From positions 1,428-65,427 of IMG/VR virus record IMGVR_UViG_3300038441_000626: DNA of 64,000 bases; one strand, 5' to 3'. Both the position numbers and the translations under genes were made by a program. Shown one piece after another: positions 1-24,180 of this stretch. The first letter of the stretch is position 1. Each line of letters starts with the position of its first letter. The notes beneath the pieces were generated by a model that saw only the letters and a list, made by a program, of their open reading frames with translations, ran no database searches and was not told the origin of the DNA. The DNA is from a virus. Taxonomy: Duplodnaviria; Caudoviricetes.

Positions 1-3000
1 GCTGGTCTCTGCGAAGCGTTCCGACGTGACGCATGAGCTTCTGCGGAAGCTTCTCTTAGCGAAGGGAAAGGGACCAAGACGGTACTGGGTCGATGTGGTC
101 AAGCCGAAACGATCCGGTGCGGCGATGGCCCTATCGCCTTTAGGAGTACTGAAGGCTAAGCGTGAGTTACAGCAGGCTGCTACTCCTGCACAGAAAGCTA
201 AAATACTCGAGAGAATTAGGTGGCTAACCAAACACACACGTAAGGAAAGCAGTGAGGGGTACAACAAATGGGCTAATTTTGCGAAACTTTTAATGGGGCG
301 AGGAGTGCCTATATCGGAAGTCGTTGAGGGAGTTAACCTTCACAAACAAGCAGAGCGCAATGAGATAATGCGCCGCCGTAAAGAGGCGGCAGCGCGACGT
401 GGAAAGCGTTCCAATGTGACGGACTTAGTTCAAGGAATGAGGAACTACGTCACCGAGGAAGGGTACGGCGTCAACGAGGCGCTTCGTTACGGACCAAAGA
501 AGGCTAGGCTTCCTCACGTGAGTGGTGGTCCAAAGGGCGCTCCTCTCCTTAAAGAGCGAGACACGCATGATGCCGCCAAATCCTTAAATAAGCTGTTCCG
601 CGTGGCGCATCCGCTAACGAGACCCCTTGTCGTATATCGTGGCATCCAAGGACTTAACAGGCCTAGACCTAAACCTGGTGAGGTGATTACTGACCCCGGG
701 TTCATGAGTACTGCCGCATCTAAAAGTCAAGCCGCTATGTATGCGGATACGGGAAAGGGCTACATCCTTAAACTGGTAGTACCTGCGGGTACTAAGGTGC
801 TGCGATCACATAAGACAAGCAGTTTTGAGCCGGATGAAGGAGGTTCGTTCTACAAGGACTCTGAGATCATTCTTCCTCCAAGGATGCGCTACAAAGTCGT
901 TGCCCAAACTGGTCCAAACGAGTACACCGCTCACGTGTTGCCTGGTCAGGTGAGGGTGCCGTACGCGTTCGCCTTAAGCCCTGCTCTTCGTGCGAAGCAC
1001 ATGACGCCCACCCAAAGGGCCCGCATAGCTGCTTATCTTAAGAGTCTCTCTCCGTGGGAGAGGAAAAGGGCATACATTTACACGAAGTTAGCTAAGCAGC
1101 CATCAAAACAGCGTACTGGTATCACAGATTTGGTGCAGGGGGCAAAGGACTACGTCAACGAGGAAGGACGTGACATTAATGAGATGCTTCGTCTAGGTCC
1201 CAAAAAGGCGCGATATGATGAGGCTAGCGGTGGTCAGCCGATGCTTACGGAACCTGATCGGCGCAATGCTGCCAGGTCTATGAACAAGCTGTTTCGAGTA
1301 GCTCACCCAATCTCGAAACCCATCGTCGTATATCGTGGCATTCAGGGACTTAGAAGACCGCGTCCTAAAATCGGTCAAGTGATTACTGATCCAGGGTTTA
1401 TGAGCACTTCTGCTCATAAAGGTCAAGCCGCGATGTATAAGCAATCACCTTACGGTGAAGAGTCTAATGTTGGGACCGGATACTTGTTAAAACTCGTGGT
1501 GCCTAAAGGCACCAAGGTGCTGATGACCCACAAAACTATGAACGCTGATGCGGGCTTCGTTACTGACGCCGAGATCGTGTTACCACCCCGAATGCAGTAC
1601 AAAATCGTGTCGCAAGACGGTCCGAACCAGTATACGGCTCACGTGTTGCCCGGGCAGGTGCGAGTGCCCTATGCATTCGCGTTTGCTCCGCCTATCACAG
1701 AAATGTACAGGCAACTTTTAGCTCAAGCACCGCCTAACCAGCGACCTCATCTGATTAACGCTATCAAAAAGGAACATGAAGGGGTCATACGGAGATTCTT
1801 GCGCCCGAGAGCTCGCGGGGAGCCTAACGTAAAGTCCTTACTGGCTAAAGCTTTACAACCGATGGGTGGCGCTGACCCGGAGATGATGAGGTACCTACAG
1901 CGTCTGAAAGAGCGTGCCCGGTACGAACAGTCAAAACCAAAAGTTAAATCCCGTACTGATCTCAGGGACTTGCTAGGCGCAACTAAGGAGTACGTCCACC
2001 ATGCTGGAATCGAGACCAGCAAGCTTCTTCGCGCGGGACCTAAGAAAACTAAATCTGCGCTCAAAGGGACGTATCAGGGCAAGATCGCTGGAGCGATGAA
2101 CAAGCTGTTCAGGATAGCCCATCCGCTCACGAAGCCCATCGTCGTATACCGTGGCGTTAAGGGCGTAAGGAGGCCTGAGCCAAAGATCGGAGACGTGATT
2201 ACCGATGCAGGGTTCATGAGCACCTCTGCGACGTATAAGCAGGCTTTGACATATGCGAAGCATGTAGTTGATCCTGCTTCGTTTACTGGGACGCAGTACA
2301 ACCCGAACGGCTACGTTATAAAAATGGTCGTTCCCGCTGGTACGAAGGTCTTGATGACTCATAAGGCGAAACCGTGGGGAGCATTGAACCCAACTGACGC
2401 GGAGATCGTGTTACCACCGAGGATGCAGTACAAGATCGTATCACACGACGGTCCTGGCCAGTATACGGCTCATGTGCTGCCAGGGCAAACTAGAGTGCCG
2501 TATGCATTCGGATATGATTTAGGCCCTAACCAGCAATCACGCACCTATACTATAGGACCATCTGGTCCAGATGTTTGGGAGCGCACAACTCAGTTCCTAA
2601 GACACGTCAGGGCTAACGGGCAGTTCACGGCGACTATGGGACAGGCGATCGCTAGCAATAATCCCAGAAAAATCTACAGGATAGTACGCGTCACACCGAA
2701 TACCTTTCTTCCGAATTGGGCTAGAGTAAACAAGCTATGGCACATGTTCAGAGTTAAACCGCGTCGCATGGGCGCGGCGATGGGCTACGGCATAGGTGCA
2801 GTCGCAAAACCGCAGGATTTTATCTTCGACGCGTCAGGACCTGACAGAGGTATTGCTCAAGTAAGGAAATTTATCAACGAAGCTGAGAAATTTGGGCAAT
2901 TTGAAACTAAAGCTATGTACGTGCCCGATCCTAAGACGCCTAAACATCTCCAAATAATAGTTCGTGTTACGCCGACTACGTTCAAGGCGAACTGGCGTCG

Positions 3001-3985
3001 ACTGTCTATACTGTGGAATAATCTTAGACATCACCGTACTGTGCGTCGCATGGGCGCGGCAATGGGCTATGGCATAGGTAAAAAACAGGATCCGCGCGTA
3101 TTTGAATTCGACCTATCTGGACCTGATGGCGGTTGGGATCGGATCAATAAATTTAGAAGCATACTTGAGCAATCTGGGCAATTCGTGACGAGTATGGGTT
3201 GGGCTGAACATAAAGCAGGAAGTCCACGTCAAGTAAAGGTTCGTGTTACGCCAACAACATTCAAAATAGACTGGCCTGCAGTAACTAAGTGGTGGCTTAA
3301 GCTAAGGCACTTCCGTAGCGTGCGCCGTATGGGCTACGCGTTCTCGTCGCGCAACAAAGACCCGCAGCATTTACCGACAATCACCAAGAAGGACCTCGCT
3401 AAGGCAGTAGCTCGTGAGCTCGGCATCACCGATGTTCAGTCAGCTAGGGCGCTCCAGTCGCTTCTGGACAATATCTCGATAGGCCTAAAGAACCACGGAC
3501 GTGTCGAGATACGAAACTTTGGGGTCTTCGAGGTGAAGCGATATAACCCCCGTCGATCAGTGTCGCCTCGAACAGGAGAAGAGGTCTATACTGAGGGCAA
3601 ATACACTGTAGTATTTAAGCCCAGTAAGCATAAATTACGGCACCCGGATGCGCATTATCCTCAAAAGCAACGTGGTGTACCGGAATTCCCGCCGTATCCA
3701 AGTGAACCTGACTGGAGAACGCAGGGGCGCGGGTATTATGCGTTCGATTTTGGTGGTGGTGAGCATACAGTATTGTTTCCTTCCGAGGATCTAGCGAGGC
3801 GTTTCATAAAAGAGGCTTTCATGGATCGTGAGGAGCCTCTTGTTGACATGAAATCACTGAAGCCTTACGGAAAATTTTGGGCTGTAAAGTTCGAGCCTGT
3901 CGCCCGCATGATGACCAAGGGCTTAGGTATAATAATTAGGAAGTACCGCGGCAGCCGTGGTGGAGATATGTCATATGTCCGATGA
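1..3985 (+). CDS. Modular polyprotein (5'-partial): 3 tandem VIP2/C3-like ADP-ribosyltransferase domains, 3 copies of an unknown ~90-aa domain, HU/IHF domain, C-terminal small domain
   Basis: Frame is open from the window edge (no stop upstream of GTG at 26). Three copies of YRG...GFMST[AS]...D[SA]EI[IV]LP (R-S-E ART motifs). TKKDLAKAVA...RVEIRNFGVFEV...SPRTGE is an HU/IHF signature. Confidence 0.85.
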   Translation, partial: LVSAKRSDVTHELLRKLLLAKGKGPRRYWVDVVKPKRSGAAMALSPLGVLKAKRELQQAATPAQKAKILERIRWLTKHTRKESSEGYNKWANFAKLLMGRGVPISEVVEGVNLHKQAERNEIMRRRKEAAARRGKRSNVTDLVQGMRNYVTEEGYGVNEALRYGPKKARLPHVSGGPKGAPLLKERDTHDAAKSLNKLFRVAHPLTRPLVVYRGIQGLNRPRPKPGEVITDPGFMSTAASKSQAAMYADTGKGYILKLVVPAGTKVLRSHKTSSFEPDEGGSFYKDSEIILPPRMRYKVVAQTGPNEYTAHVLPGQVRVPYAFALSPALRAKHMTPTQRARIAAYLKSLSPWERKRAYIYTKLAKQPSKQRTGITDLVQGAKDYVNEEGRDINEMLRLGPKKARYDEASGGQPMLTEPDRRNAARSMNKLFRVAHPISKPIVVYRGIQGLRRPRPKIGQVITDPGFMSTSAHKGQAAMYKQSPYGEESNVGTGYLLKLVVPKGTKVLMTHKTMNADAGFVTDAEIVLPPRMQYKIVSQDGPNQYTAHVLPGQVRVPYAFAFAPPITEMYRQLLAQAPPNQRPHLINAIKKEHEGVIRRFLRPRARGEPNVKSLLAKALQPMGGADPEMMRYLQRLKERARYEQSKPKVKSRTDLRDLLGATKEYVHHAGIETSKLLRAGPKKTKSALKGTYQGKIAGAMNKLFRIAHPLTKPIVVYRGVKGVRRPEPKIGDVITDAGFMSTSATYKQALTYAKHVVDPASFTGTQYNPNGYVIKMVVPAGTKVLMTHKAKPWGALNPTDAEIVLPPRMQYKIVSHDGPGQYTAHVLPGQTRVPYAFGYDLGPNQQSRTYTIGPSGPDVWERTTQFLRHVRANGQFTATMGQAIASNNPRKIYRIVRVTPNTFLPNWARVNKLWHMFRVKPRRMGAAMGYGIGAVAKPQDFIFDASGPDRGIAQVRKFINEAEKFGQFETKAMYVPDPKTPKHLQIIVRVTPTTFKANWRRLSILWNNLRHHRTVRRMGAAMGYGIGKKQDPRVFEFDLSGPDGGWDRINKFRSILEQSGQFVTSMGWAEHKAGSPRQVKVRVTPTTFKIDWPAVTKWWLKLRHFRSVRRMGYAFSSRNKDPQHLPTITKKDLAKAVARELGITDVQSARALQSLLDNISIGLKNHGRVEIRNFGVFEVKRYNPRRSVSPRTGEEVYTEGKYTVVFKPSKHKLRHPDAHYPQKQRGVPEFPPYPSEPDWRTQGRGYYAFDFGGGEHTVLFPSEDLARRFIKEAFMDREEPLVDMKSLKPYGKFWAVKFEPVARMMTKGLGIIIRKYRGSRGGDMSYVR
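418..2509 (+). repeat. Three intragenic repeats encoding ART domains (~418-970, ~1123-1678, ~1954-2509)
   Basis: Near-identical DNA/protein blocks NKLFR[VI]AHP...VVYRG...ITDxGFMST...YTAHVLPGQxRVPYAF. Confidence 0.9.
2510..3342 (+). repeat. Three intragenic ~90-aa repeats of unknown function
   Basis: Each unit has SGPD...GQF...VRVTPxTF...W and ends in RRMG(AAMG/YAFS). Confidence 0.85.
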
Positions 3986-6900
3986 ACCCAACAGGCCCAT
4001 CAAGACTGTTCTTTATTTCGACAAGAGGAATAGGGCGGCCGAGGCCGCGGAGTACTTGAAGTCCAAGGGCTGTACGATACGTTATGACTTCAAGAAGAAC
4101 GGCCTCAAGGTCGGTGTCGTAGGCCCGAGGGCAGTCATCAACCAGTGCATGCTTAAGCACAAGGGGATACCTGTGCCGAGAGATCAACGTAAAATGAAGC
4201 AGCGACCTATGGCATTCGCAAATCCGGGGCGTCCTCGTAGCGGCAACATAAATCCGGCGCTACAGCAGCCGGGCGCTCCGCACAGCATGGGCATAGGACC
4301 TGGACCGCATCCTGGGGACCAGTACGATATGCTCCTCGACTGGTCACTCAAGTTCAAGAAGCCGACGTATGCGGAGAAAGTTCTTGTCGCGCTTCGACAA
4401 CAAAGAGTTCAAGCTATAAGTCCCTCAGCGCACCAGGTCATCATCAGCGGCATCACTCAGCAGCAGATGAATCGGATCATGGAGTGGCGCGTCGAGGTGC
4501 CGGCGTTTAGCGGCAACAAAAAGGACAAGCCACAGATTTTGCCGATCGGGGCGATGGCAGGATACGTAGCGACACCTCAGTACGGCTCGCAGCGCACGCC
4601 CGACGTCGGCCGGTACAGTGATCCTTCGAAGAGTGCCGGAGAAACTGCAGTAGAGTTCATCGTTGACTTCGGATCAACTGTGGGCGCTGAGGCGGCCATA
4701 GCAGCCCTGGTGGGGTACGGCATCGTCAATATAAACAGCGATGGGCTGGGTCGTCTAGCGTTCGGGGCTAAAATAGTGTTTATGAAAACTTTGCAGACTA
4801 TCTTCAAAAGGTATAACGCTCGATCAGTAAAGACGAAAACTCACAAGGGCAAACCTCGAACTCCGCCTCTTAAGGGTGGGCGACCAATCTCACAGGCGCC
4901 CCAAGCTCCGTGGTATAGGAGGATGTTTGCTAAGAAGCCTCCGTTCAAACCGCCGACTGTTTCGCCCTCGATGTACACGAAAGGTCCTACTACTTCAGGA
5001 CCTAGAGACACGTTACCGGAGCTGCCGCCGCTCGTGGGCGGTACTGATCTGCCGAGATCAGGGCATCGTAGACCGCCGATCATTCAACCTCCGAAGGCCC
5101 CAAAGGGCAAGCAAAAAGCTTCAGGATACAGATTCAGGAAGAAGGGTCTCGCTTTCGGTCACACCCTTGACCTTGATAATGTGAAGTTCGGCTTGGAGCC
5201 CTGGACTATCGCGTACGCGATCTTGGATTTCATGTCCGGCGGCGAGGGCACTGTTGCGGCTACTAGGTATCTCGTCGACAAGGGACACAAAGCATCGCGA
5301 GTCGCTAAGAACAAGATCGCTGTCTCTGTTCGTAACATTAAGGACAGTCAGCGTGTTAAACGTCTCGCGGAGCAGATGGGTGCTGCGGTTCGCTTTGTGA
5401 AGAAGGGTCGCTCGGGTAAGGGCATGGACCTGCAGCGTGCTCCCGTTCAGAGACTTCCAAGGAGAATAGAAGTCCAGGTGCCGGAGTCGATCGCTCGTCA
5501 CGTCATCAAGATGTTGAAGCGAAAAAATTATAACTACGACGTTCAGGCGCCCGAACATCTTCCTGGAGCGGGTACGCAGTTCGTTATCAGTATCACTGAC
5601 CCTGATAAGGGTATCGCAGCATGGCTCATGCATCAGGGCGTTAAGCTCCTGCGATCTCATCCGTTCGGGATGGGTCTTGCCGGTGAAGCTCCTAGCCCCG
5701 GCATCTGGGATGTATACAAGTATGCTACGCCTAGGGCCGCCGCCGAAGCTGCTCTGGAGCTCCACAGGAAGGGCTTCACGGTGTCCAATCAGGGCACCAA
5801 GATCGGTATTAGGGAAGTCGAAGGTATTGACCCCAAACGGGCTAACTACTTAGCTCTGAAACTTGGCGGTAAGCAGGTCGCGAGTGCTACTACGCTCTGG
5901 AAGGGTCCGCCGCCGAGGCACACGCCAGTCGTCGGTCCTCTACTCGGTCGCTACGCAGCACGTAAGAAAGAACTCGAGGCCCAGTACGCACCACAGCCGG
6001 CTGCTCCTGCAGGACCCGCACAGGTGCAGGGCAAGCCCGAGTGGGACATTTACAAGTTTCAGTTCAAGAGTCCTTATACTGCGTTAAAGCATCTGGAGAA
6101 AAGGGGCTTTACGGCGTCGGTGATGAACAACATGCTGTTTGTTCTCTTTGAGACCGGCCGCAATATGAGTGGTGCGGTGCAGATTCTCCAGAAGCTAGGC
6201 GGTCAGCACGTCGCGGGTAACGTGCCGTTCGAGGTCCCAGTCGGACAGCAGATGCGAGGAAGGTTTACCGGTACTGGGCCCAAGAAAGTCAGTCTGGGCT
6301 ACGGATCGGCGTTTCGTTATGCTGCGCCTCACATCGGGCGCTTCGTACGAGGGGCTGCTCGCCACGCTTGGACCGGTGGCAAGTTCCTCACCGCCCAGAT
6401 CGCTAACATAGTGTCGTTTACTGCACTCTCTGCAGCGATCGAGCAAATCGGCGCCCGATTAACGAGATCAGGTGACCAGGTGCAAGTGCAGGGGTCGCCC
6501 GAGCAGTTAGCTCTAGCAAAGGAGATCATCGAGGGCGCTGGCGGCAAGGTCAAGATGGGCATGGGCTTTGGTCTTGCGGGTGTTCCGTCAACTAAGAGGG
6601 TTGTTCCGGGATATAGAAGTAAAACATGGGCCTGGGGAAAAGTACCGCCTGAACCTCTTCCTCCTAACTGGAAAGAACGAGCTAAGCAAGCTAAGAAAGC
6701 AACAGGTGAATGGTGGAATAGACGAAGTGAGCCGTTCAAGGCGATCTCTGCTCTAGCTGGCGTCGGACTGTTATACGTCCCGATCGGGTCAGCGATCATG
6801 ACTGCATTTGAGCTGGCAGGTATTCCGTTTGAGCGCGTCGGGAACTACCTCGCTGTCAAGTCCGCTGGTATTAAAACTGAAGCGGAAGTACGACGTATTG

Positions 6901-7949
6901 CTGAAGAGAACGGCGTAAAGGTCATCAAAAAGGGTAAAAAGAACGCGGACGTGGCGTTTGCAGCTAACCCGCCGGGGTTTGATCAAGTTTGGGAAGCATA
7001 TAATGCAGGACAGGCAAAGGCTAACAGGATTCGTACGATCTATACAATCACAGCCTTGTCTGTTGGCGCTACGCTGAACATAATGGCAAAGCTTGGTCAG
7101 GCTAAGATCGACGCGAGAAAGATCGACAAGTTTACTGTTAGCACTGAGCCAAAAACTGAAGCACAGCGCGAGAGAGTTCTGGCTATTGCTAGAAAATACC
7201 ACGCCACTATAGGTCAACAAGTCAAGGACTATTTCAAGGGTCGGTCGACTATCAGGAATGTAAGTGATACTCTATTTGGTGGCGGCGTGGCTGGTATCAT
7301 CGGGGCTGGACTTACTGTGAGATTCTTGATCAAGCACCCACAGGCTGCTAAGGCTACCGCGGCATTCATCCGAAGACTCGCGGCGATGGGCGCTAAGATG
7401 CGTGGCGTAAGTCCCAGAACGGGTACTGTGGTGACCCAGTTGACTCCAGAGCAACTGGCGCAGATTAAACCAGTCTTGAACAAGTACGGCGCTAAAGCTA
7501 CCAGCATCAGACCGGTTCCTGGACAGAAGCGCATTGGGGGTCCCACGTTGACCAGTCAGGCGAGGAACGCTGCATTCGGATTCGCTGATGCTTTTCCTCC
7601 AGACCCGTTCTATAATACTGCATCGCGGCGCGCAGAACGCGCTTGGAACCGTACTAAAGAAACTGCAGGAGAAGCTTGGAACTATCATAGTAAGAAACGA
7701 CCGCTCGTAGTCATAGGTCTAGTGGGCGTAGCCTTTTACTTTGCGCTTAAAGGTCTTGTCGCGGCTGGGATTGCCGCTAAAAGAGTCGGCGATAAAATCG
7801 TCGTTAAACTTAAAGGTTCTCCAGAAGAACAGAAAGCGCAAAAAGCAAAAGTTCAGCAAATCGTACAGGATGCGAAGAGCCAAGCAAAGTACGCCGCGTT
7901 CGACTTCACTCATAAGGTTCAGTGCCACCCGACGATCAGCGTGACGTAG
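3975..7949 (+). CDS. Large basic modular protein (about a dozen divergent small alpha/beta units, some with hydrophobic segments); putative internal virion polyprotein
   Basis: 1330-aa ORF; likely start ATG 3975 after GGAG; Lys/Arg-rich; units separated by AF[AGD]/xMG motifs. Confidence 0.7.
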   Translation: MSDEPNRPIKTVLYFDKRNRAAEAAEYLKSKGCTIRYDFKKNGLKVGVVGPRAVINQCMLKHKGIPVPRDQRKMKQRPMAFANPGRPRSGNINPALQQPGAPHSMGIGPGPHPGDQYDMLLDWSLKFKKPTYAEKVLVALRQQRVQAISPSAHQVIISGITQQQMNRIMEWRVEVPAFSGNKKDKPQILPIGAMAGYVATPQYGSQRTPDVGRYSDPSKSAGETAVEFIVDFGSTVGAEAAIAALVGYGIVNINSDGLGRLAFGAKIVFMKTLQTIFKRYNARSVKTKTHKGKPRTPPLKGGRPISQAPQAPWYRRMFAKKPPFKPPTVSPSMYTKGPTTSGPRDTLPELPPLVGGTDLPRSGHRRPPIIQPPKAPKGKQKASGYRFRKKGLAFGHTLDLDNVKFGLEPWTIAYAILDFMSGGEGTVAATRYLVDKGHKASRVAKNKIAVSVRNIKDSQRVKRLAEQMGAAVRFVKKGRSGKGMDLQRAPVQRLPRRIEVQVPESIARHVIKMLKRKNYNYDVQAPEHLPGAGTQFVISITDPDKGIAAWLMHQGVKLLRSHPFGMGLAGEAPSPGIWDVYKYATPRAAAEAALELHRKGFTVSNQGTKIGIREVEGIDPKRANYLALKLGGKQVASATTLWKGPPPRHTPVVGPLLGRYAARKKELEAQYAPQPAAPAGPAQVQGKPEWDIYKFQFKSPYTALKHLEKRGFTASVMNNMLFVLFETGRNMSGAVQILQKLGGQHVAGNVPFEVPVGQQMRGRFTGTGPKKVSLGYGSAFRYAAPHIGRFVRGAARHAWTGGKFLTAQIANIVSFTALSAAIEQIGARLTRSGDQVQVQGSPEQLALAKEIIEGAGGKVKMGMGFGLAGVPSTKRVVPGYRSKTWAWGKVPPEPLPPNWKERAKQAKKATGEWWNRRSEPFKAISALAGVGLLYVPIGSAIMTAFELAGIPFERVGNYLAVKSAGIKTEAEVRRIAEENGVKVIKKGKKNADVAFAANPPGFDQVWEAYNAGQAKANRIRTIYTITALSVGATLNIMAKLGQAKIDARKIDKFTVSTEPKTEAQRERVLAIARKYHATIGQQVKDYFKGRSTIRNVSDTLFGGGVAGIIGAGLTVRFLIKHPQAAKATAAFIRRLAAMGAKMRGVSPRTGTVVTQLTPEQLAQIKPVLNKYGAKATSIRPVPGQKRIGGPTLTSQARNAAFGFADAFPPDPFYNTASRRAERAWNRTKETAGEAWNYHSKKRPLVVIGLVGVAFYFALKGLVAAGIAAKRVGDKIVVKLKGSPEEQKAQKAKVQQIVQDAKSQAKYAAFDFTHKVQCHPTISVT

Positions 7950-9265
7950 TGCTAACTGACGCCTGGTACCCATTGAGGCATCACCCGCTGCAGGCCCAGC
8001 TCTGGCGAACCAGAGCCCGCTTTGTAGCTGCGGCCTGCGGTCGGGGTTCTGGAAAAACAGAATTAGCCAGGCGGCGGGTGATTCGGTATCTTCCGGTGAA
8101 GAAACCCTGGTCGAATCCGATGTACTTCTACGCGCTGCCCACGCATCAGCAGGCCAAACGCGTAGCTTGGGACTATCTGAAGTCCTTGGTGCCTAAGGAG
8201 TGGCTAAAATCTGCGCCTAGCGAGAGCGAGTTGCTCATCAGGACTATCTTCGGTAGCACGTTACACCTCGTCGGCATGGATAAACCCCAACGAATTGAGG
8301 GTAATCAGTGGGACGGCGGCGTGGTCGATGAGAGCTGCGATCAGAAGCCTGGACACTTTGATCGGTCGATACGCCCAGCACTCAGTCACCGGAACGGCTG
8401 GTGCTGGCGTATCGGTGTTCCTAAGAGGTGGGGTCCTGGTGCTGCAGAGTTCAAATCAATCTGGGAGGAGTGGGGTAGCGGGAAGTTCGGTGATAATTAC
8501 GAGTCCTACACGTGGCCGTCGGGTGACATTTTACTCCCGGACGAAATCGAGGACGTAAAGCGAACACTGGACCAGAAAGACTTCGAGGAGCAGTACGGCG
8601 CCATCTGGCAAGGCACCTCAGGACTTGTGTTCTACGCCTTTGATGAGAAACTTAATGTCTCGGATAATGTCAAGTACGATCCCGGGCGCCCTCTACTGGT
8701 CGGGAGTGACTTCAATGTGGATCCCATGGCGTGGGTCGTCGGCCAGTACTACGACCCGGGTCCAATCAATAAAAGCGGGCCAGAGTTCCATTTCTTCGAC
8801 GAGATTTTCCTGCGAAATACCAACACCCAAAAGACCTTGAACCATCTGCACCACAAATATCAGGGGCACCAGATGGGTTGGCGGTTCCTTGGAGACGCAA
8901 CTGCTCGGGCAAGGAATACTAGAGCTTCGTCGAGTGACTACGCCCAGATTCTGAACGATCTGAGGTTTTTGAACTCAAAAGTGATGTATCCGCAGAGCAA
9001 TCCTGCTAGAGCAGATCGCTTTGCTGCATCTAATGCGATTCTGTGCAATGCTGCAGGTCAAAGACGCTGCTACTTGCACCCGAAATGTGTGAACTTGATC
9101 CAGGATCTGTCGTCTCGGGCCTACGAGCCTGGGTCTCGTGAACCAGATGACCACGATGACATCGGGCACATTACCGATGCCTTTGGGTACGTTATACACT
9201 ATCTGAAGCCGATCGCCGCAGCGCCTTACACGTCTGTTCCGCAGATTTACGTAGACGTAGCATGA
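7922..9265 (+). CDS. terL: Terminase large subunit
   Basis: Walker A GRGSGKT, Walker B VVDE, nuclease GSDFN and C-terminal HITDAFGY. Confidence 0.95.
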   Translation: MPPDDQRDVVLTDAWYPLRHHPLQAQLWRTRARFVAAACGRGSGKTELARRRVIRYLPVKKPWSNPMYFYALPTHQQAKRVAWDYLKSLVPKEWLKSAPSESELLIRTIFGSTLHLVGMDKPQRIEGNQWDGGVVDESCDQKPGHFDRSIRPALSHRNGWCWRIGVPKRWGPGAAEFKSIWEEWGSGKFGDNYESYTWPSGDILLPDEIEDVKRTLDQKDFEEQYGAIWQGTSGLVFYAFDEKLNVSDNVKYDPGRPLLVGSDFNVDPMAWVVGQYYDPGPINKSGPEFHFFDEIFLRNTNTQKTLNHLHHKYQGHQMGWRFLGDATARARNTRASSSDYAQILNDLRFLNSKVMYPQSNPARADRFAASNAILCNAAGQRRCYLHPKCVNLIQDLSSRAYEPGSREPDDHDDIGHITDAFGYVIHYLKPIAAAPYTSVPQIYVDVA

Positions 9266-11556
9266 GCAAACGGACTCGCTACCGAAAGAAACACACCGCG
9301 TCCTGCATCCTTGGGGCAGTTGGTGCTATCGGTAGAGCAGGTCTTCGGCAGTTACCGAAGGCTGCTAAGTGGACAGCTAAGAATGTCGGAGTTCCGTGGG
9401 CAGTGTCTGAGGCTACAGTCGCGGGTGTCAGGGGCGGCCAAAGAATAGCGAGGGGCAGACCGAAAACTAAGCAGGAGGTTGCAAAAGAAGAGAGTACATA
9501 CGACACCACCGATCTGGCGATCGACCTAGTGATCCCCACAGTCGGCGGTTTGTTCATGGGCGGGATTCCGGGTATCATCGTAGGCACCTTGGCTGCTGAG
9601 GGCGTCAAGGGAATTCGCGGGATGTTCAAGAATAAAGCCGGCCAAACAGTCGTGCGAGTTCCTAAGAGTCAAGCGGGCAAGGTGATGAATGCGGTCAAGA
9701 AGGAGAAAGTTCATGTCGCTACTCACGGTCCTGGTGTACCTCGACCTGGTATTAAGCCTGGCATTCGTCCTAGGTCCGTACCTGCTCCTTCTAGTAGTGG
9801 CGGTGGAGGAGGAGTCGACGGTCGAAGTACACGAGACGACTACAAACGCGACAGCATAGGTCGTTTCGCGGGCTTTGAATCCCGTCGCCTGGCCTATATG
9901 GGACTACAGCAGCGACAGAAATACGAGATGGGTCTCGTTGATGACCCATGGGATGTCGCGTTACCCATCGTAGGATGGGCAGCTGCTGGTGGGTGGGGCG
10001 CACTCACTGTTTATCTCGCCGGTAAGGGCATCAAGGCTCTTGTTGGAAAAGGTCGAGTCCAGGTTGCCCCTGAGGATGCTGCCAAGGCTAAAGCGCTCAT
10101 CGAGAAGAAGGGTGCCCGCGTCGGTAAGGCCGCAAAGGTGCGGAAGGCGATCAAGAAGCGCGACGAGCTCGCCGATTACGCCAGGTCATATGGCGGGATC
10201 GAGAACGTTCCCGATAAAGTATTCCGCGATTTGAAGAAAGCTCAAGAGGGCGTTCAGGGGCACGAGGAGCGGCAACACGAGAAGAGTCGCTCTAGATTGG
10301 ATCGAAAGTATAAGCGCGATTCTGAAGGGCAGTTCGCGGGCTTCGAGATGCTAAATGATCCCGGTGCCTCGATGGGCATCGGAAACGTAGTTCGGAAAGG
10401 GCTAGTTGGAGCAAAGCGCGCGCTTAGGCAGAAGTTTCGCGAGACCGGAACACGTATCTTGACACCGGGTGGTACTACGCATCAATGGGCGGATTCTGCA
10501 ACTGAGCACACACCAAGCGCCCTTCGTGCTGCTGCGCATATATTAGGCAGCAAACCCTCTAGATACGTGCGGTCGACTGCGGGTGAGCAGTTCAAGAAAG
10601 CAGCAAGAACTGCTGGGCAAGCTGCTAAGGATGTCGCGCCGTATGCTGCTATTGTCGGTGGCGCAGCTGGCGGTGCAGCTTTACTTCGTAAGTACAAACG
10701 AGATCGTGAAGGTCAGTTTGCCGAATTGGGCCTTGGTCGAAAGATCGCGGTTAGCGCAAGGCGTGGCCTTCGTAAGAGATTTCGTGAGACTGGGCTACAA
10801 AGTTACGGCAGGTACTACCCCGACGAGTACTATAAGCGTCGTGATGTGCGCCACCAGCTCCACGGACCAACAAGAGGTCGATCACAGCCGGTTGTGAAGT
10901 ACAAGTTCCCAGTTCCTGGTGCCGCGATGGGCCCAACGCAGGGCAAGCACATCGCTAAGCTCGTCCAGGGTACCCGTCGAGGACTTCGAAAGCACTTCAC
11001 CGAGTCAGGCTTTAGAGTTAAGGGTCGACACGAGTACAATAAAAAGGTACGTGGTTTCGAACCTGATGTGCCTGGCGTGCCACGTCAACAGAAGATGCGG
11101 GAGTATCATCCCTATGCGAACGTTGAACCGACCAGACGTGTTAACCTTCTTAAGGCGCCCGGAAGCATACTGAAGAGTACGATCTCGGGTGCCGGTCAGC
11201 GCATACGAGGGATTCCTGTGCCGAGACAGATGTCTCCACAGATGAAGAAAGCTATGCTGGCTGGCAGTTTTGCAGCTGCCATTGCTATCGCTCACAGCGC
11301 CTGGCAACGCTATCGCGATCAGTCGGCTGAACGTTCAGCCGAGATGGCTGGCGAGGCGGGACGTGCTGGACAGTTCGGAAAGCGCTTGCTGAGACGTACT
11401 ATTCCCGGCTTTTTGGTACACGAGGGCAAGCGCCTCGCTAAAGGCATCGCGGTTCGCGGCGGGAAGAAAGTTGCTAAGAAAACAGCTAGGGAGTACAAGC
11501 GCGACCGAGAGGGCCAGTTCACCGGGTTCGAGATGCTCAACGATCCTAACGTGTAA
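9262..11556 (+). CDS. Basic modular protein with four YKRDxxGxF repeats; putative internal virion polyprotein
   Basis: 764-aa ORF coupled to terL (ATGA overlap); repeated YKRDxxG[RQ]F and RRxLRxxFxExG units; hydrophobic helices. Confidence 0.7.
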   Translation: MSKRTRYRKKHTASCILGAVGAIGRAGLRQLPKAAKWTAKNVGVPWAVSEATVAGVRGGQRIARGRPKTKQEVAKEESTYDTTDLAIDLVIPTVGGLFMGGIPGIIVGTLAAEGVKGIRGMFKNKAGQTVVRVPKSQAGKVMNAVKKEKVHVATHGPGVPRPGIKPGIRPRSVPAPSSSGGGGGVDGRSTRDDYKRDSIGRFAGFESRRLAYMGLQQRQKYEMGLVDDPWDVALPIVGWAAAGGWGALTVYLAGKGIKALVGKGRVQVAPEDAAKAKALIEKKGARVGKAAKVRKAIKKRDELADYARSYGGIENVPDKVFRDLKKAQEGVQGHEERQHEKSRSRLDRKYKRDSEGQFAGFEMLNDPGASMGIGNVVRKGLVGAKRALRQKFRETGTRILTPGGTTHQWADSATEHTPSALRAAAHILGSKPSRYVRSTAGEQFKKAARTAGQAAKDVAPYAAIVGGAAGGAALLRKYKRDREGQFAELGLGRKIAVSARRGLRKRFRETGLQSYGRYYPDEYYKRRDVRHQLHGPTRGRSQPVVKYKFPVPGAAMGPTQGKHIAKLVQGTRRGLRKHFTESGFRVKGRHEYNKKVRGFEPDVPGVPRQQKMREYHPYANVEPTRRVNLLKAPGSILKSTISGAGQRIRGIPVPRQMSPQMKKAMLAGSFAAAIAIAHSAWQRYRDQSAERSAEMAGEAGRAGQFGKRLLRRTIPGFLVHEGKRLAKGIAVRGGKKVAKKTAREYKRDREGQFTGFEMLNDPNV

Positions 11557-11568
11557 AGGAGATCAAAT

Positions 11569-12369
11569 ATGGTGTCGCGTCGTCAAGCTTACGAAATGGG
11601 ATTTGATGAGGGCTATACTGCGGGTTACGAGTTCGGCATCGGAAGTGCTATCGGGAAGATTGGTCGCAAAGCTCTTGTCAGCGGTCGACGGGCAATCGGT
11701 TCTGGTGGAAGAGCTGCTATTAAAAGTGGTGCTGCGAAGGCGCAGCGCGCTGGTAGGGTAGCCTCGGTCACTGGTCGGCGCGCGTTCCGGCAGGGAGCTG
11801 CTAAAGTTGGCGGTGCTGCACGAACCGCTGGACGAAATGCCCAGATTGCTGGTGGACGTATCGCGGAAGGAGCTGCTAAGGTCGGTGCCAAGGCGCAGCG
11901 CGCCGGTCGAGTAGCCTCAGTTAGTGGACGACGCGCAGCACGTCAGGGAGCCGCCAAAGTTGGCGGCGCCGCTAGAAGCGCGGTCTCAGGCGGCGGGGCG
12001 CGGACGAGGCCTGGCGTGCACGCTCCAGGGTTCACACCGCCCAGTTCCTTTCACCGACCTATCAGTGGGGCGCCAGGAGCTGTCGGGCGAGGCTCCGCCA
12101 AGGTCGTTCAGGGCGCGCGACGTGCCGTTCGACCTACTATTGCAAAGGCCGGACGAGCTGCTCGGAAGGCATCTGTAGGAGTCCGACGAGCGGCTGGTCG
12201 ACATGGACGAGCGGCGGCTCCATATATTGCCGGTGGAGTAGCTAGTGCTGGGGTCGTTGGTGGCGCTGTCGCCGCGAAGCGCAAGTACGACCGTGACAAT
12301 GCCGGTCGCTTCGCCGGCTTCGAGTCGCGTCGGATGGCCTACATGGGTCTCATGTTGAACCAGAGATAG
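11569..12369 (+). CDS. Arg/Gly/Ala-rich basic protein, related to the upstream gene
   Basis: AAGGAG RBS; internal duplication (AKAQRAGRVASVxGRRAxRQGAAKVGGAAR x2); ends with KYDRDNAGRFAGFESRRMAYMGL. Confidence 0.75.
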   Translation: MVSRRQAYEMGFDEGYTAGYEFGIGSAIGKIGRKALVSGRRAIGSGGRAAIKSGAAKAQRAGRVASVTGRRAFRQGAAKVGGAARTAGRNAQIAGGRIAEGAAKVGAKAQRAGRVASVSGRRAARQGAAKVGGAARSAVSGGGARTRPGVHAPGFTPPSSFHRPISGAPGAVGRGSAKVVQGARRAVRPTIAKAGRAARKASVGVRRAAGRHGRAAAPYIAGGVASAGVVGGAVAAKRKYDRDNAGRFAGFESRRMAYMGLMLNQR

Positions 12370-12372
12370 TCA

Positions 12373-13839
12373 ATGGTCCTCGATCTCACTGATAATCGAA
12401 ACGGTAAGGCTAGAAAGAAGCGTTCTGAGCAGACGGTAGCCCAGGTCCTGTTCTCTGCAGGGCCGACTGGTGATCTGCCTCCGAACACTTTAGCTCTGCC
12501 ACCGCAGAACGACGGCCGATGGTACAACAAAGTCCGGCATATGCGTCGGGACCCGACTATCGGATTCCTTCGATCGGTCTACATGGCGCCCATCATTGCA
12601 GCCGAGTGGACCGTCGTGAGTGATGATCCTAAATTTGAGAACGCAGTTCCTGGGATCGTCGAGAACACCGTTAGGTTCAGGACGAAGTTTCTTCGTCACA
12701 CGATGCGAGGTCTCATAGATTATGGGTGGCAGTCTTTTGAAGTTGTCAGAGGTCAGCGAGCCACGGGCGAGCTTTATGTCGAGAAGCTTAAGCCGTTGCT
12801 TCCCGACCTCACAGAGATTCTCGTCGATCCCTATGGTAATCTCGTCGGACTCAAGAATGACACCGTCTACAGCAACTTTGTCCTCACCACCGCGACCTCC
12901 GTCTACCTGTACCGCGGAGAATGTATAGTCCTGTACCGTGACGCCGAAGGCACTAATTGGTATGGGGAACCTCTCGCTCGTCGATACGAGCGCTCGTTTA
13001 ACTCTTGGAACGAATCAGACGATGCCGCGCGCCGTTTTGATAACAAAGTGGCCGGCGCCTCGTGGGTCGTGTATTATCCCGAAGGAACCAGTACCTATAA
13101 CGGCCTCGAGAACACCGACAATGCAACTATCGCTAAGGACATTGCGGCAGGGCTAGTATCCTCTGGCAAGGTTGTCGTGCCCAACAAGGTGATGAATACT
13201 GTTGATGCCCTAAACGGCGTGGATCCCTCTAGGGCAGCCTGGCGCATTGAATTGCTATCTGCAAACACACAGCAAGCCACGTTCGTCGATCGTGGCAAAT
13301 ATCTTGACTCGCTCAAAGCTCGGGCGATGGACATCCCTGAAAGGGCGATCTTCGAAGGGCAGTTCGGTACAAAAGCGGAAGCGGAGGCGCATGCTGACTT
13401 CGCGATCGACAACCTGGAGATGGCCCACCAGGAACTGCTCGAACTCTTCAACGAGCAGTATGTGGATTACCTGTTGGAGGTGAATCACGGTCCTGACTAC
13501 AAAGAAAAGGTGCGTGTCGTTGCTACACCGCTGACTGACCAGAAGCGAAATTTAGTTAAGAAGCTTTACGATCAGCACTGGGCGAGTCAGACTGGGCAGG
13601 CCCAAGAATCTGACGCGATCGACTGGTCAGCGATCAGGGATCAGTTGGGTGTTCCGATCCGTAAGGACTACGTCGATCAGGTTCAAAAAGAGAATCAGAG
13701 TGCTAAATCTCGTCGTGTAGCGTATCTGGCTAAAAAGGCTGCGAGGGAGAGACCTAGTGCCCAGCCCGCCGGACCAAATCCCGATCGAGCGCCCACACCA
13801 GTCCCCGAACGGGGACCTGACAGGGATGCCGAGGGTTGA
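12373..13839 (+). CDS. Portal protein (Mu gp29/DUF935-like)
   Basis: 488 aa; MRRDPTI, IDYGWQSFEV, NWYGEPL, GTKAEAEAH resemble Mu gp29-type portals; position after terL. Confidence 0.85.
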   Translation: MVLDLTDNRNGKARKKRSEQTVAQVLFSAGPTGDLPPNTLALPPQNDGRWYNKVRHMRRDPTIGFLRSVYMAPIIAAEWTVVSDDPKFENAVPGIVENTVRFRTKFLRHTMRGLIDYGWQSFEVVRGQRATGELYVEKLKPLLPDLTEILVDPYGNLVGLKNDTVYSNFVLTTATSVYLYRGECIVLYRDAEGTNWYGEPLARRYERSFNSWNESDDAARRFDNKVAGASWVVYYPEGTSTYNGLENTDNATIAKDIAAGLVSSGKVVVPNKVMNTVDALNGVDPSRAAWRIELLSANTQQATFVDRGKYLDSLKARAMDIPERAIFEGQFGTKAEAEAHADFAIDNLEMAHQELLELFNEQYVDYLLEVNHGPDYKEKVRVVATPLTDQKRNLVKKLYDQHWASQTGQAQESDAIDWSAIRDQLGVPIRKDYVDQVQKENQSAKSRRVAYLAKKAARERPSAQPAGPNPDRAPTPVPERGPDRDAEG

Positions 13840-14140
13840 TGCCTACATAAAGGTCATCAAGTACCTCGGCTTCCCGATCGTATTCGGGGGCGTGATGCTG
13901 TGGATTTTCTGGGAACTGATCGGCGACTACCGCGCGTCGATCAAGGAAAGCACGATCGCCCAGAAGCAGACCGCGGATGCGCTCCTGGAACTGAAGGTCG
14001 TGCGCGAATCGCACATGAAGCAGCAACTGGAGCAGACTAAAGCCGTCAACGATACACTGAATGTACTCCGGGAGATCATGGCTGAGCGTCGAGATATCAT
14101 GCGTGAGATGATCGAGAAAGAACGGGAGAAAGTCAAATGA
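13826..14140 (+). CDS. Holin-like membrane protein (one TM plus coiled coil)
   Basis: YLGFPIVFGGVMLWIFW segment followed by a charged helical tail. Confidence 0.55.
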   Translation: MPRVDAYIKVIKYLGFPIVFGGVMLWIFWELIGDYRASIKESTIAQKQTADALLELKVVRESHMKQQLEQTKAVNDTLNVLREIMAERRDIMREMIEKEREKVK

Positions 14141-15090: not shown

Positions 15091-15167
15091 GCCTCGCAAT
15101 CTGCATTATAGTGTTTACGGTCCTGCTAGTTGTCGCCTACGTAGTAACAAAGGATGATTTCAGATAA
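15087..15167 (+). CDS. 26-aa single-TM peptide (not in ORF track)
   Basis: MSLAICIIVFTVLLVVAYVVTKDDFR; coupled on both sides (ATGA and TAATG). Confidence 0.55.
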   Translation: MSLAICIIVFTVLLVVAYVVTKDDFR

Positions 15168-15991
15168 TGGCTCTTGATGAGATCCTCGACGACACTGGGC
15201 ACCCTTGGAAACTGGGCTGGAAGCCCCCGCCACCCCAGCAGGCCAAACTCCGCTCCGCTCGTACGTCATTGCAGGATTACCGGGTCGCTGCTGGTATGCC
15301 TCCGCTGATTCCCCGTTCCGAGTGGGTGCCGATTGATCTGGTGACGGGCTACCCGCTGGCACTCATCGAAGATCAGCGGAACTATGGCTCATGCACCGCT
15401 GCGACCGCCACAGGTGCTGGGAACAGGATGCGGCATTTCCGTGGGCAGCCGTATGTCTCGTTGTCGTGGTGCTGGCTCTACGACCAGGTGAATGGCGGCC
15501 GGGATCAGGGCAGTAACATCGACTACTGCAATGAAGTCGTACGTCGTGAAGGTGTTCCTCCGATGTCGGCTTATCCCGACTGCACGTTCAATAGCAATTA
15601 TGATCCCCAGGGCGTTCCGTACTACCGCGAGGATGTAGAGGTCAGAGTCGATTCCTTCGACGAAATCTGCACAGCGATCCAGATGCTGATGTTCCCACAG
15701 TTCCCAGTCGATGCTGCTAATTGCCAGCAATTTGACGGCGACGGAATCGGGATCGGCAATGGACGCAATCCGAATCATTCTGTCTACGGGGCCGGCCTGG
15801 AATTTGTCAGAGGAATCTGGGTCGTGCGGGGAGTCAACTCGTGGAGGACGAGTTTCGGTCCGTTCGACGATGGGACATGGAGAATGACAGAGAGCCAGAT
15901 CGATGGCTGCGATGTCTACCAGGATGGAATTGCCCATGCGTCTACCCTATCGCCAGTCGATAGCGGTGTTCCTGATCCTGTACTGGTATGA
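15167..15991 (+). CDS. Papain-like (C1 family) cysteine peptidase
   Basis: DQRNYGSCTA (Gln/Cys), NHSVYGAG (His), NSW (Asn). Confidence 0.85.
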   Translation: MALDEILDDTGHPWKLGWKPPPPQQAKLRSARTSLQDYRVAAGMPPLIPRSEWVPIDLVTGYPLALIEDQRNYGSCTAATATGAGNRMRHFRGQPYVSLSWCWLYDQVNGGRDQGSNIDYCNEVVRREGVPPMSAYPDCTFNSNYDPQGVPYYREDVEVRVDSFDEICTAIQMLMFPQFPVDAANCQQFDGDGIGIGNGRNPNHSVYGAGLEFVRGIWVVRGVNSWRTSFGPFDDGTWRMTESQIDGCDVYQDGIAHASTLSPVDSGVPDPVLV

Positions 15992-22874: not shown

Positions 22875-23443
22875 TGCCTATCTATCCAGAGAGTGTAGTC
22901 GGCGCGCCGTGGTGGACGTCGCGTGAGGAACTCGAGCGGATGTTTGGGCGGACTAACATCACCCGTTGGGCCGACATTGAAAATGAGAATGTCGCAGAGG
23001 ATATTACGGCCCAGATACAGTGGTCAGTCGTCGCTGGTCACGAGGATGCTGTGATGCGCTTGGAGGGTACATCCTGCGGGATAATTTATACGGCGCCGAG
23101 TCCGCTAAGGATAGCGACAACAAGACTCGCTGCATTCCTACTGTATAGTGCTCGCGGAATCAAAGACGCTCCCGAGGATCAGGAAGGCCGTAGCAGGTTA
23201 TCGACCGCTAAGAAACTTGCTGATGAGTTCTTCAAAATGGTTCGGGCCGGTCAGTACAGCATCGGTAGCGGTTTGGCCGGTGATGGTCTACCGATTACCT
23301 CGTATCCTGAGGCCTTGAGGCCCTTTGATCCAACAGGACAGGATCGTAATCAGGACCAGATCATGGAGGATAACATCGCTGATGAACATTCTGGAATACA
23401 AGGCGTACCAACACAACGAGATAACATCGAGTGGGCAGAGTAA
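22874..23443 (+). CDS. Head-tail adaptor (Mu gp36/DUF1320-like)
   Basis: WTSREELERMFG...LAAFLLYSARG...FFKMVRAG pattern. Confidence 0.7.
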   Translation: MPIYPESVVGAPWWTSREELERMFGRTNITRWADIENENVAEDITAQIQWSVVAGHEDAVMRLEGTSCGIIYTAPSPLRIATTRLAAFLLYSARGIKDAPEDQEGRSRLSTAKKLADEFFKMVRAGQYSIGSGLAGDGLPITSYPEALRPFDPTGQDRNQDQIMEDNIADEHSGIQGVPTQRDNIEWAE

Positions 23444-23532
23444 GTTTATCTAGCGAACTAGGCGGTCGCCTGGCGTCCAGGTTTTCAAGCACAGTGTTCG
23501 CTCGATGCGTAGTCGCTGCCCGAACTCTGGTG

Positions 23533-24180
23533 ATGCCTGACATCATCGACGTACTGCAGGATGTTGAGCTCACCTCCAATAGGGCTATGAATCTGGCCTT
23601 CGAGGAGAATCTTAATCGAGGCGTAGGCTTAGCCCAGATTGGCCTTAACAAGCGAGAGACCAAGGCAGTTAAGGAGCTCTACAGCTCTGTAGCTCGAACC
23701 TCTACAACTAAAACTATGTCGCAGCTCAGGGAGGAGCTCATTAAGATAGTAAAGGCCAGCGCTAAGTTAAAGCCCGATCGGCGCGAGGCTTTCATCAAGA
23801 AGCATTTAAAGCGTCTGGGTGTCGGTGATGCAGTAACTGGCAACGTAGTTAAAACGCTCGTCGATACTCACGTGTCGATTGCAGGCAACGCAGCCACGTG
23901 GGTAGCTACGCAGCGCAGTGATAAGCTCTGGGGTTACGAGTACAGAGCACGAGATGATGCGCGTACGAGACCCGGTCACAAGGCCCTCGATGGAGTGCGA
24001 TACCCTCGCAATCACAGGTTCTGGCGACGCTTTGCTCCTCCTAATGGGTGGGGATGCAGGTGCAAGCTAGTTCCGATCTACGTGGGCAGTGACCGGGCTC
24101 GTATTAAAAGATTCAGTGGCACGCCTGATGTGGACCCCGAGTTCATGTTCAATCCGGGGACGCTAGTCACGGTATACTAA
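23533..24180 (+). CDS. MuF / SPP1 gp7-like head morphogenesis protein (no C-terminal extension)
   Basis: DDARTRPGHKALDG, FWRRFAPPNGWGCRC, FMFNPG; start could be as far upstream as 23431. Confidence 0.9.
   Translation: MPDIIDVLQDVELTSNRAMNLAFEENLNRGVGLAQIGLNKRETKAVKELYSSVARTSTTKTMSQLREELIKIVKASAKLKPDRREAFIKKHLKRLGVGDAVTGNVVKTLVDTHVSIAGNAATWVATQRSDKLWGYEYRARDDARTRPGHKALDGVRYPRNHRFWRRFAPPNGWGCRCKLVPIYVGSDRARIKRFSGTPDVDPEFMFNPGTLVTVY

Follow-up and report, generated by a model that had tools for sequence, protein, structure and literature searches.

Among the described systems in which a phage carries enzymes in its head, T4 is one of the nearest to the locus considered here, and its Alt protein is presented in PMC5512222 as a head-packaged, injected ADP-ribosyltransferase (ART). 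The present analysis concerns a 64,000-nucleotide stretch of DNA (the window) from an uncultured tailed phage (Duplodnaviria; Caudoviricetes), corresponding to bases 1428-65427 of the linear 65,427-base IMG/VR record IMGVR_UViG_3300038441_000626 (completeness 89%, CheckV). Four open reading frames (ORFs) of the window, ORF1, ORF2, ORF4 and ORF5, lie around the gene for the terminase large subunit (TerL) and encode basic proteins, up to 1,578 amino acids (aa) long, that are punctuated by a short recurring motif; we consider it probable that these proteins are head cargo. As in T4 with gp21 and IPI-III/Alt, an ART and small basic proteins are encoded with head genes, packaging being proposed here, and a short motif is proposed to be common to scaffold, protease and cargo, with a protease of assemblin/HK97-type fold. 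The cargo of T4 is encoded by separate small genes, carries an N-terminal targeting peptide and is cut after L/I-x-E. Here, by contrast, the cargo would consist of 266- to 1,578-aa chains with up to about 12 modules and a small-[F/M]-small motif, in a phage with a Mu-like head module and a genome of about 65-78 kb.

In the giant phages phiKZ and SPN3US, an essential prohead protease (gp175 and gp245, respectively) is described as processing many head proteins that are packaged and ejected (PMC5694885, PMC10052503, PMC7411985). These are 240-280-kb myophages with separate cargo genes, unlike the mid-sized, long-tailed phage analysed here, in which the cargo is concatenated. The cleavage motif of the phiKZ/SPN3US type is A/S/G-x-E. 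Polyvalent proteins, in the account of Iyer et al. 2017 (PMC5512222), are predicted to be packaged in virions, injected and processed into units, and an in-chain zincin-like metallopeptidase (MPTase) is proposed for them. The window resembles this arrangement in that unrelated domains (three ARTs, an HU domain and unknown modules) are joined in one late-gene polypeptide, but ORF1, ORF2, ORF4 and ORF5 show no in-chain peptidase, no LPD-type Pfam match and no HExxH, and a search of PMC5512222 for HU/IHF-type or histone-like modules found none.

Two further systems bear on the locus. Like the herpesvirus assemblin-scaffold (UL26/UL26.5), which is its best specific fold match, the putative prohead protease of the window has an invariant His/Ser/His, is fused to its scaffold, and is accompanied by conserved small-hydrophobic-small sites after the protease and in the scaffold C-terminal domain. 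The assemblin consensus is (V/L/I)-x-A-S, cut between A and S, and the scaffolds have release and maturation sites. The likeness ends with a weak fold match (E of at least 0.05), a different motif and the fact that herpesviruses are not known to have cargo polyproteins. MuF-fused polymorphic toxins and MuF effectors are described as effectors, often ARTs, that enter the head via a head protein (PMC5576092, PMC9503650), and ARTs encoded beside terminase and portal genes have been inferred to be head-packaged (PMC9503650). Unlike these, the MuF protein of the window is plain, and the putative effectors reside in separate chains beside TerL. The present case differs in its motif, its proposed protease family, its Mu-like head, its concatenated cargo and its conserved HU module; the general idea was already familiar from T4 and the giant phages, so that what is added lies in variant and scale without amounting to a new kind of system.

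Four basic, modular proteins in the late head cluster

All genes of the window are carried on the + strand, and the four putative cargo genes lie inside the late head cluster, with ORF2 overlapping the TerL gene, the TerL gene overlapping ORF4, and ORF5 abutting the portal gene. The same order of cargo, TerL and portal genes is found in four related loci (L018, L032, L033 and L034). The genes and modules of this part of the window are the following.

2..3985, + strand: ORF1, putative cargo polyprotein 1, truncated at its 5' end by the window; the full gene (G000 676..5412) encodes 1,578 aa in 11 modules
131..2512, + strand: three tandem predicted ART modules (131-973, 974-1681 and 1682-2512), ending in PYAFA, PYAFA and PYAFG
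2513..3346, + strand: three tandem 91-94-aa domains of no known family (2513-2785, 2786-3067 and 3068-3346), ending in RRMGAAMG, RRMGAAMG and RRMGYAFS, 36-47% identical
3347..3748, + strand: DNA-binding module of the HU/IHF type; its tail is rich in Pro and it ends in GYYAFD (PF00216, E 1.4e-21, 77 bits against a cut-off of 22.4)
3749..3982, + strand: C-terminal 78-aa module of ORF1, whose homologue in L018 has no stop codon here and runs on into the junction PRVAMS (printed sequences compared)
3957..7949, + strand: ORF2, putative cargo polyprotein 2, 1,330 aa from GTG 3957 (or starting at ATG 3975), about 12 pieces
5427..5675, + strand: complete ferredoxin-like module (ORF2 residues 491-573) absent from strain L021; residues 109-173 of the AlphaFold (AF2) fragment, with linkers of low predicted local distance difference test (pLDDT) score on either side
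7922..9265, + strand: TerL, between the putative cargo genes (PF03237, E 8e-6; phrog_2, E 9e-25)
9262..11556, + strand: ORF4, putative cargo polyprotein 3, 764 aa, isoelectric point (pI) 10.8, four units each ending YKRDxxGxF-x-[GE]-[FL]-[EG]
11569..12369, + strand: ORF5, 266 aa, pI 12.0, a single-unit relative of the ORF4 units

Full-length ORF1 comprises an N-terminal leader, two unknown modules, the three ART modules, the three 91-94-aa domains, HU and the 78-aa C-terminal module, and its 11 pieces have pI values of 9.8-11.8. Upstream of the window it contains two or three additional motif sites, and is itself preceded by a 5'-open ORF that may belong with the cargo genes. The ART region matches PF03496 (ADPrib_exo_Tox; E 1.3e-17, 64.3 bits against a cut-off of 23.4), and the signature expected of ARTs of the R-S-E type is present in all three copies (YRG; STS, or STA in copy 1; and D-[SA]-E-I), pointing to predicted ADP-ribosyltransferases of the Alt/VIP2-exoenzyme type. 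The same region is also matched by PHROG 595 ('head maturation protease'), and copy 2 has no match at E<=0.01 among PDB sequences. The 91-94-aa domains belong to no Pfam family, and a protein atlas gave no usable match for them.

The ORF1 repeats were aligned with MAFFT as motif-delimited pieces, a self-BLAST for internal repeats having returned the self-hit only. The ART copies are 46-63% identical in pairwise comparison, and this identity, together with that among the small domains, bears out a proposal of the sequence-only reading, an initial interpretation of the window from its letters, that modules were gained by duplication between motif sites. The same reading had called the modules effectors, a description that fits the ART copies only; most of the other modules are generic ferredoxin-like folds without known function.

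The N-terminal half of ORF2 is made up of ferredoxin-like modules and its C-terminal half of units combining a hydrophobic helix with a small domain. ORF2 belongs to no Pfam family and has no match in viral contigs, and neither it nor ORF4 has a homologue of similar length, other than itself, in a set of 5.8 billion proteins. An AlphaFold model of ORF2 residues 395-775 (shallow alignment, mean pLDDT 52.7) contains four beta-alpha-beta-beta-alpha-beta modules, the ferredoxin-like domains being about 65 aa in length, and all three motif sites of the modelled fragment fall in linkers with pLDDT<50. Foldseek matches to this low-confidence model are to generic tandem ferredoxin-like folds (BipA C-terminal domains, ACT, RRM and designed ferredoxin folds), from which no function follows.

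In ORF4 and ORF5, each unit is closed by a composite tag, [HY]-x-[RK]-D-x-x-G-[RKQE]-[FW]-A-[SG]-F, which recurs in L032, L033 and L034. Its RDxxG.F core occurs four times in ORF4 and five times in ORF4 and ORF5 together, against 0.01 expected in either case, and our literature search found no paper naming an RDxxGRF-type tag. Both ORF2 and ORF4 also contain glycine-zipper-like hydrophobic segments.

The cargo proteins have pI values of 10.4-12.0, against 4.45 for the protease-scaffold fusion encoded downstream. Almost all motif-bounded pieces of ORF1, ORF2 and ORF4 (29 of 31) have a pI of 9.7-12.0, the exceptions being pieces of 14 aa (pI 8.2) and 10 aa (pI 4.1), and the initial description of small basic modules is in keeping with these values. 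Its estimate of 25-30 pieces is reasonable provided that every site is cut (11 + 12 + about 8 + 2-3).

A short motif at the module borders

The motif that separates these modules is almost certainly real and linked to their junctions. We distinguished a strict motif, A-[F/M]-[A/G/S/D], from a loose set, [AGSE][FM][AGSDE], and judged enrichment against within-protein shuffles. The motif strings quoted in the sequence-only reading are all present in the translations of the ORFs for which they were named. The strict motif occurs eight times in the part of ORF1 inside the window (1.6 expected; 0/300 shuffles reach 8) and nine times in ORF2 (2.5 expected; 0/300 shuffles). Pooling the four cargo proteins, with full-length ORF1 included (3,938 aa), yields 22 occurrences against 7.3 expected (0/1000 shuffles), whereas 48 other proteins of the phage (15,346 aa) contain 23 against 22.3 and so show no enrichment. 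Independence cannot be claimed for the ORF1 counts: the ART units and the small domains arose as tandem copies, and each copy ends in the motif. In ORF4 and ORF5 taken together, the loose set is found 13 times against 7.3 expected (p 0.02), and a variant, G[FM]E / E[FM]G, eight times against 0.53 (0/3000 shuffles).

The position of the motif follows the module anatomy. At all six boundaries of ORF1 that can be defined by homology (ART1/2, ART2/3, ART3/S1, S1/S2, S2/S3 and S3/HU, S denoting the small domains), the unit has the motif among its final residues. Over 44 listed sites the codons differ, with GCN, TTY and GGN all variable, and the constraint therefore bears on the peptide and does not reflect a DNA repeat. 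The consensus of these sites shows R/K at -6 and -5, G/P at -3, A/Y/M/F at -2, A (25/44) at -1, F (24/44) or M (20/44) at the central position, G/A at +1, L/F/Y/I at +2 and G/A/S at +3, which can be summarized as a linker of the form basic-basic-x-[G/P]-[A/Y/M/F]-[A/G/S]-[F/M]-[G/A/S/D]-[L/F/Y/I]-[G/A/S]. Host signal peptidase, with its A-x-A specificity, was considered as the cutter and rejected, since basic and not hydrophobic residues precede the motif.

Conserved junctions and exchanged modules in related phages

To place the locus among its relatives we used TerL-anchored searches, which returned 13 viral and 11 metagenome loci, several of them from the same contigs, and a portal-anchored search, which added four more loci, one of which (L035) lies on the same contig as L008. 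Five records besides the window (L021, L018, L032, L033 and L034) carry basic giant or multi-unit proteins beside TerL; the genomes from which L033 and L034 come are complete, measure 75 and 78 kb and carry terminal repeats. HU is found in the giant proteins of the window, L018, L033 and L034, that is, in all four cases for which the region is available. Ten other TerL relatives (L008-L017) have no such cargo proteins near TerL, and some of them present long MuF or protease-scaffold fusions instead. A search for TerL in genome contigs, directed at prophages, gave no match.

L018, L034 and L032 again show enrichment of the motif, which is absent from L033; for the strict motif the effect is weaker. 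The cargo of L018 contains [AGS][FM][AGS] 25 times against 7.5 expected (0/2000 shuffles) and the strict motif nine times against 4.1 (p 0.023), while the other L018 proteins contain [AGS][FM][AGS] four times against 10.9. For [AGS][FM][AGSD], the cargo counts are 22 against 10.4 in L034 (0/2000) and 7 against 3.3 in L032 (p 0.04), with strict-motif counts of 9 against 4.9 (p 0.054) and 4 against 1.4 (p 0.046), respectively.

Alignment of ORF2 with L018 2559-5795, at 23-27% identity, brings their junctions into register (PMAFA with GFAFA, DVAFA with ASMAF, and NAAFGFA with SASMGFS). At much shorter distance, the close strain L021 (82-91% nucleotide identity) is without one whole ORF2 module of 82 residues, the gap extending from GKGM to PFGM, motif to motif, and right after MGMGF it departs from the window into an L018-like module, a module swap. 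Several weak sites of the window are canonical in L021, where SAEMAG is replaced by SAAMAG, GASMGIG by SAAMGIG and VSLGYG by HSMGYG. Gene ends also correspond to junctions elsewhere. The last module of ORF1 and the first of ORF2 are contiguous in one L018 protein, with PRVAMS between them; HU opens an L018 gene and in the window comes after RRMGYAFS; and a junction inside ORF4 is matched on its two sides by the N- and C-termini of ORF5. At the level of sequence, these comparisons show the units to be autonomous, with the motif at their borders, which is a separate matter from proteolysis. The sequence-only reading had placed its modules between motif sites, and this placement is borne out: the motif is kept at equivalent junctions, bounds insertion, deletion and swap, and coincides with gene starts and stops elsewhere.

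A putative prohead protease fused to an acidic scaffold

The enzyme that we favour as a candidate for processing is encoded downstream of the cargo genes, within the head module.

24186..25448, + strand: putative prohead protease, which takes up residues 1 to about 170, joined to an acidic scaffold (pI 4.45); PF10123, Mu-like_Pro, E 4e-5, 23.7 bits, below the cut-off of 25.2

H79, S128, H149 and D154 are invariant in all ten protease sequences aligned. The best specific Foldseek matches to an AlphaFold model of the protease (pLDDT 71.6) are herpesvirus assemblins, with a probability of up to 0.94, and T4 gp21 is found only at rank 43. Candidate sites in the fusion protein are GAFALS (13), EEMGLGDL twice (245 and 258), YGFE, GVAFGYGG (303) and VEVAMSY (358). 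In the scaffold C-terminal domain, one column reads [A/S/G]-[L/F/M]-[S/A] in 11 of 11 aligned sequences: VAMS in the window, VSFA and VGFA in two complete cargo-bearing genomes, and LAFS, ISLS, ISFS, VSFS or VALS elsewhere. A second site (GVAFG, PPAMS or SPMSL) lies just before that domain. These conserved sites resemble those at which assemblin scaffolds are released and matured, and would tie the cargo motif to the head protease, although they could also be structural.

The motif had initially been read as dense in the scaffold and shared with the prohead protease. The loose set does show a moderate excess in scaffold residues 201-420 (6 against 2.6, p 0.03), which the strict motif does not match over the whole protein (see below); what survives of the proposed link is a small number of scaffold sites, two of them at conserved positions, and not a dense shared motif.

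Among the relatives, L010 (16374-18767) and L012 (13165-16008) encode protease-scaffold proteins with a 200-270-aa N-terminal extension. Their scaffolds are rich in x-[A/S]-L-S strings (ISLS, VALS, MALS), possibly the same type of site with Leu in place of Phe/Met.

Proposed processing of the chains and its alternatives

In the mechanism that we infer, with respect to packaging, cleavage and its scissile bond, the acting protease and ejection alike, the cargo would be late, head-associated polyproteins of a long-tailed phage, together about 3,940 aa with a pI of 10.4-12. The basic chains would co-assemble with the very acidic scaffold inside the prohead, where cuts made at the junction motif by the scaffold-fused, Mu-gpI-like Ser/His prohead protease would yield about 25-30 pieces; these would be retained alongside the DNA in the head and would exit together with it when the phage infects a cell. 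We lean towards the junction motif being a cleavage site. That head-packaged polyproteins are cut at these junctions specifically by the Mu-gpI-like prohead protease is put forward more tentatively, at slightly under an even chance.

If this proposal is true, four genes would deliver about 30 proteins with the DNA, including three ADP-ribosyltransferases and an HU protein, and the motif would be the first cleavage code proposed for a head protease of the Mu-gpI type. Motif-bounded gain, loss and swapping of modules illustrates how phages could shuffle injected proteins as cassettes, and a defined junction code would allow cargo to be recognized in metagenomes and chosen proteins to be loaded into capsids.

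Several observations weigh against cleavage by the prohead protease. Its assignment is weak, with a Pfam score below the cut-off, no Foldseek match at E<=0.001 and no tblastn match to the protease domain in cultured phages; our literature search found no published cleavage specificity for proteases of the Mu-gpI type, and the stretch directly after the protease domain of the window, VVTLSL, misfits the F/M motif. Over the whole protease-scaffold, the excess of the strict motif is weak (3 against 1.1, p 0.10). In ORF4 (1 against 1.3) and ORF5 (0 against 1.3; together 1 against 2.7) this motif is not enriched; for these two ORFs the initial claim that similar sites split the cargo proteins had drawn on looser forms (AGFE, YEMG and AEMA) and does not hold in the strict form. 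The cargo of L033 shows no enrichment either, for [AGS][FM][AGSD] (11 against 9.3, p 0.32) or for the strict motif (5 against 4.0, p 0.37). Some hits (ORF2 269 and 1144, ORF4 670) fall within hydrophobic segments and not at junctions, a clear inter-module linker at ORF2 residues 643-695 is without the motif, and a crude test of flank disorder revealed only a modest contrast (p 0.02-0.03). Lastly, a putative papain-like peptidase of the window, overlooked by the sequence-only reading, or a matrixin at the same position in L018, could be the processing enzyme.

15167..15991, + strand: putative divergent papain-like (C1) cysteine peptidase, between the portal and MuF genes (PF00112, E 1.5e-3, 19.1 bits, below the cut-off of 20.7)

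Cleavage of the chains at the junction motif by this accessory peptidase, and not by the prohead protease, is in our estimation unlikely. When aligned to procerain (8jcq), the product of 15167-15991 keeps the GSC, NH and NSW motifs that would provide the catalytic Cys, His and Asn; a homologue is present in G002 (E 4e-23), and the L018 matrixin (12755-13480; Peptidase_M10, E 1.8e-16) occupies the same position. Homologues were sought with the protein itself as query, the PF00112 family search having missed even the copy in the window. In G001, a possible, very divergent homologue shows GDC and GHAVxxVGY by eye (BLASTP E 0.054), with no match to it by hidden Markov model (HMM) or Pfam. Papain-type enzymes select a bulky hydrophobic residue at P2, whereas matrixins select a small residue at P1 followed by a hydrophobic one at P1'; both preferences are compatible with small-[F/M]-small. 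One conserved motif would nevertheless have to be recognized by two different catalytic classes; the conserved scaffold sites are also present in relatives in which no such peptidase was seen, within loci extending no more than about 10 kb to either side of TerL; and the accessory peptidases could equally be cargo or lysis enzymes.

It also appears unlikely that the motif is left uncut and acts as a docking or 'sticker' element, an aromatic or Met residue set between small ones in flexible basic linkers, binding the acidic scaffold or the capsid interior and loading intact chains. The location of the motif in linkers, its presence in the acidic scaffold region as EEMGLGDL (twice) and YGFE, and the complementary charge of cargo and scaffold would all suit such a role, as would the RDxxG[RQK][FW]-A-[SG]-F tags that close units C-terminally in ORF4, ORF5, L032, L033 and L034, which are placed as loading peptides would be. 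Intact chains of 1,300-1,600 aa, however, would need to pass the portal and tail unprocessed, and the finding that one phage ends or begins genes where another has junctions speaks for units that function as separate polypeptides. Docking and cleavage, moreover, are not mutually exclusive.

A motif without dedicated function, arising from a preference at linkers or strand ends and multiplied as modules were tandemly duplicated and recombined, would account for the fact that many ORF1 sites are copies of one another, and is in line with the lack of enrichment in L033 and the modest contrast in disorder. We regard this explanation as very unlikely: the motif follows unrelated folds (ART, HU, ferredoxin-like and membrane-type units) and is written in different codons, it is retained at 23-27% identity although the linkers around it have diverged, weak sites are canonical in the other strain, and the rest of the proteome lies at expectation. 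Internal translation starts at the Met codons of the motif, yielding separate modules, were rejected in spite of an ATG at the central position of 20/44 sites, given that the other 24 have Phe (TTY), which is unable to initiate, and that F and M interchange at equivalent junctions (PMAFA with GFAFA, AAFGFA with SMGFS).

An N-terminal leader and a possible loading code

The N-terminus of ORF1, upstream of the window (L007 715-800, in G000), is a 26-30-aa leader, MPFKSEKQRRYMWAKHPEIARRWADE, that matches phrog_1375 (unknown function). The same type of leader is found in L012 at about 13225-13305 and at the starts of the L033 8565-9992 and L034 1796-6283 proteins. At E<=0.001 the phrog_1375-type leader has matches in 752 representative clusters. 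Of the 150 proteins listed (40 to 1,037 aa), 134 show a match that begins within the first six residues, and 13 of 36 long leader-bearing proteins contain DUF6321. The leader may be head-targeting, because it also heads the protease-scaffold fusion in L012.

An extension of the proposed cleavage by the head protease, about which we are doubtful, is that the junction motif, the phrog_1375 leader and the C-terminal RDxxG[RKQ][FW]-A-[SG]-F tag together might form a transferable load-and-release code in phages with Mu-like heads. Any small domain between junctions would then be loaded by the scaffold, freed by the head protease and injected; HU, packaged as well, would coat the genome, and modules could be swapped as cassettes between phages.

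Head module and other genes

The head module of the phage is Mu-like, comprising TerL, portal, MuF, the protease-scaffold fusion and the capsid protein. Its remaining members, and the tail gene identified downstream, are listed here.

12373..13839, + strand: portal protein, Mu type (PF06074, E 1e-9)
23431..24180, + strand: MuF-like head protein, plain, 249 aa (PF04233, E 7e-14)
25958..27031, + strand: major capsid protein, lambda gpE type (PF03864, E 6e-83)
29566-32145, + strand: tape-measure protein

A long tail is likely, because a tape-measure protein is encoded; no sheath gene was seen in the window, where the tail genes were only partly identified. The best identity of the capsid protein is 41%, to Wolbachia phage WO, and the protein shows no propeptide-like motif cluster (strict motif 1 against 0.6 expected). 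No near-identity DNA match to window 1-12400 was found in cultured phages.

Approximately 9.5 kb (window 13757-23443) separate the portal from a conserved gene of 189 aa at 22874; in relatives, this gene is adjacent to the portal or close by. Besides the putative C1 peptidase, this region encodes beta-helix proteins at 17812-19242 and 19521-22874, and an S-adenosylmethionine (SAM) methyltransferase with a signal-like N-terminus at 15988-16758.

Some relatives present peculiarities of their own. The TerL of L018 (6540-7845) reads as two ORFs, 6540-7274 and 7324-7845, for which a frameshift, a faulty assembly or an element lying in between could be responsible, and the late region of this phage carries a fatty-acid desaturase gene (15031-15729; PF00487, E 2.6e-24). 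Two strings noticed by eye were set aside, namely a JAB/JAMM-like HxH...SxxD in the L033 giant protein, which has no Pfam support, and an ART-like string in the long MuF protein of L008, for which no support was found. In L009, the MuF gene (7332-9245) has Hint/intein-type matches inside the MuF domain (Intein_splicing, E 2.5e-5). The DNA polymerase of the window (50637-53339) aligns with its PHROG over two separate stretches (residues 21-383 and about 656-852), and the 270 aa between them, with a weak match to HNH endonucleases, may be an insertion or an intein-like element.

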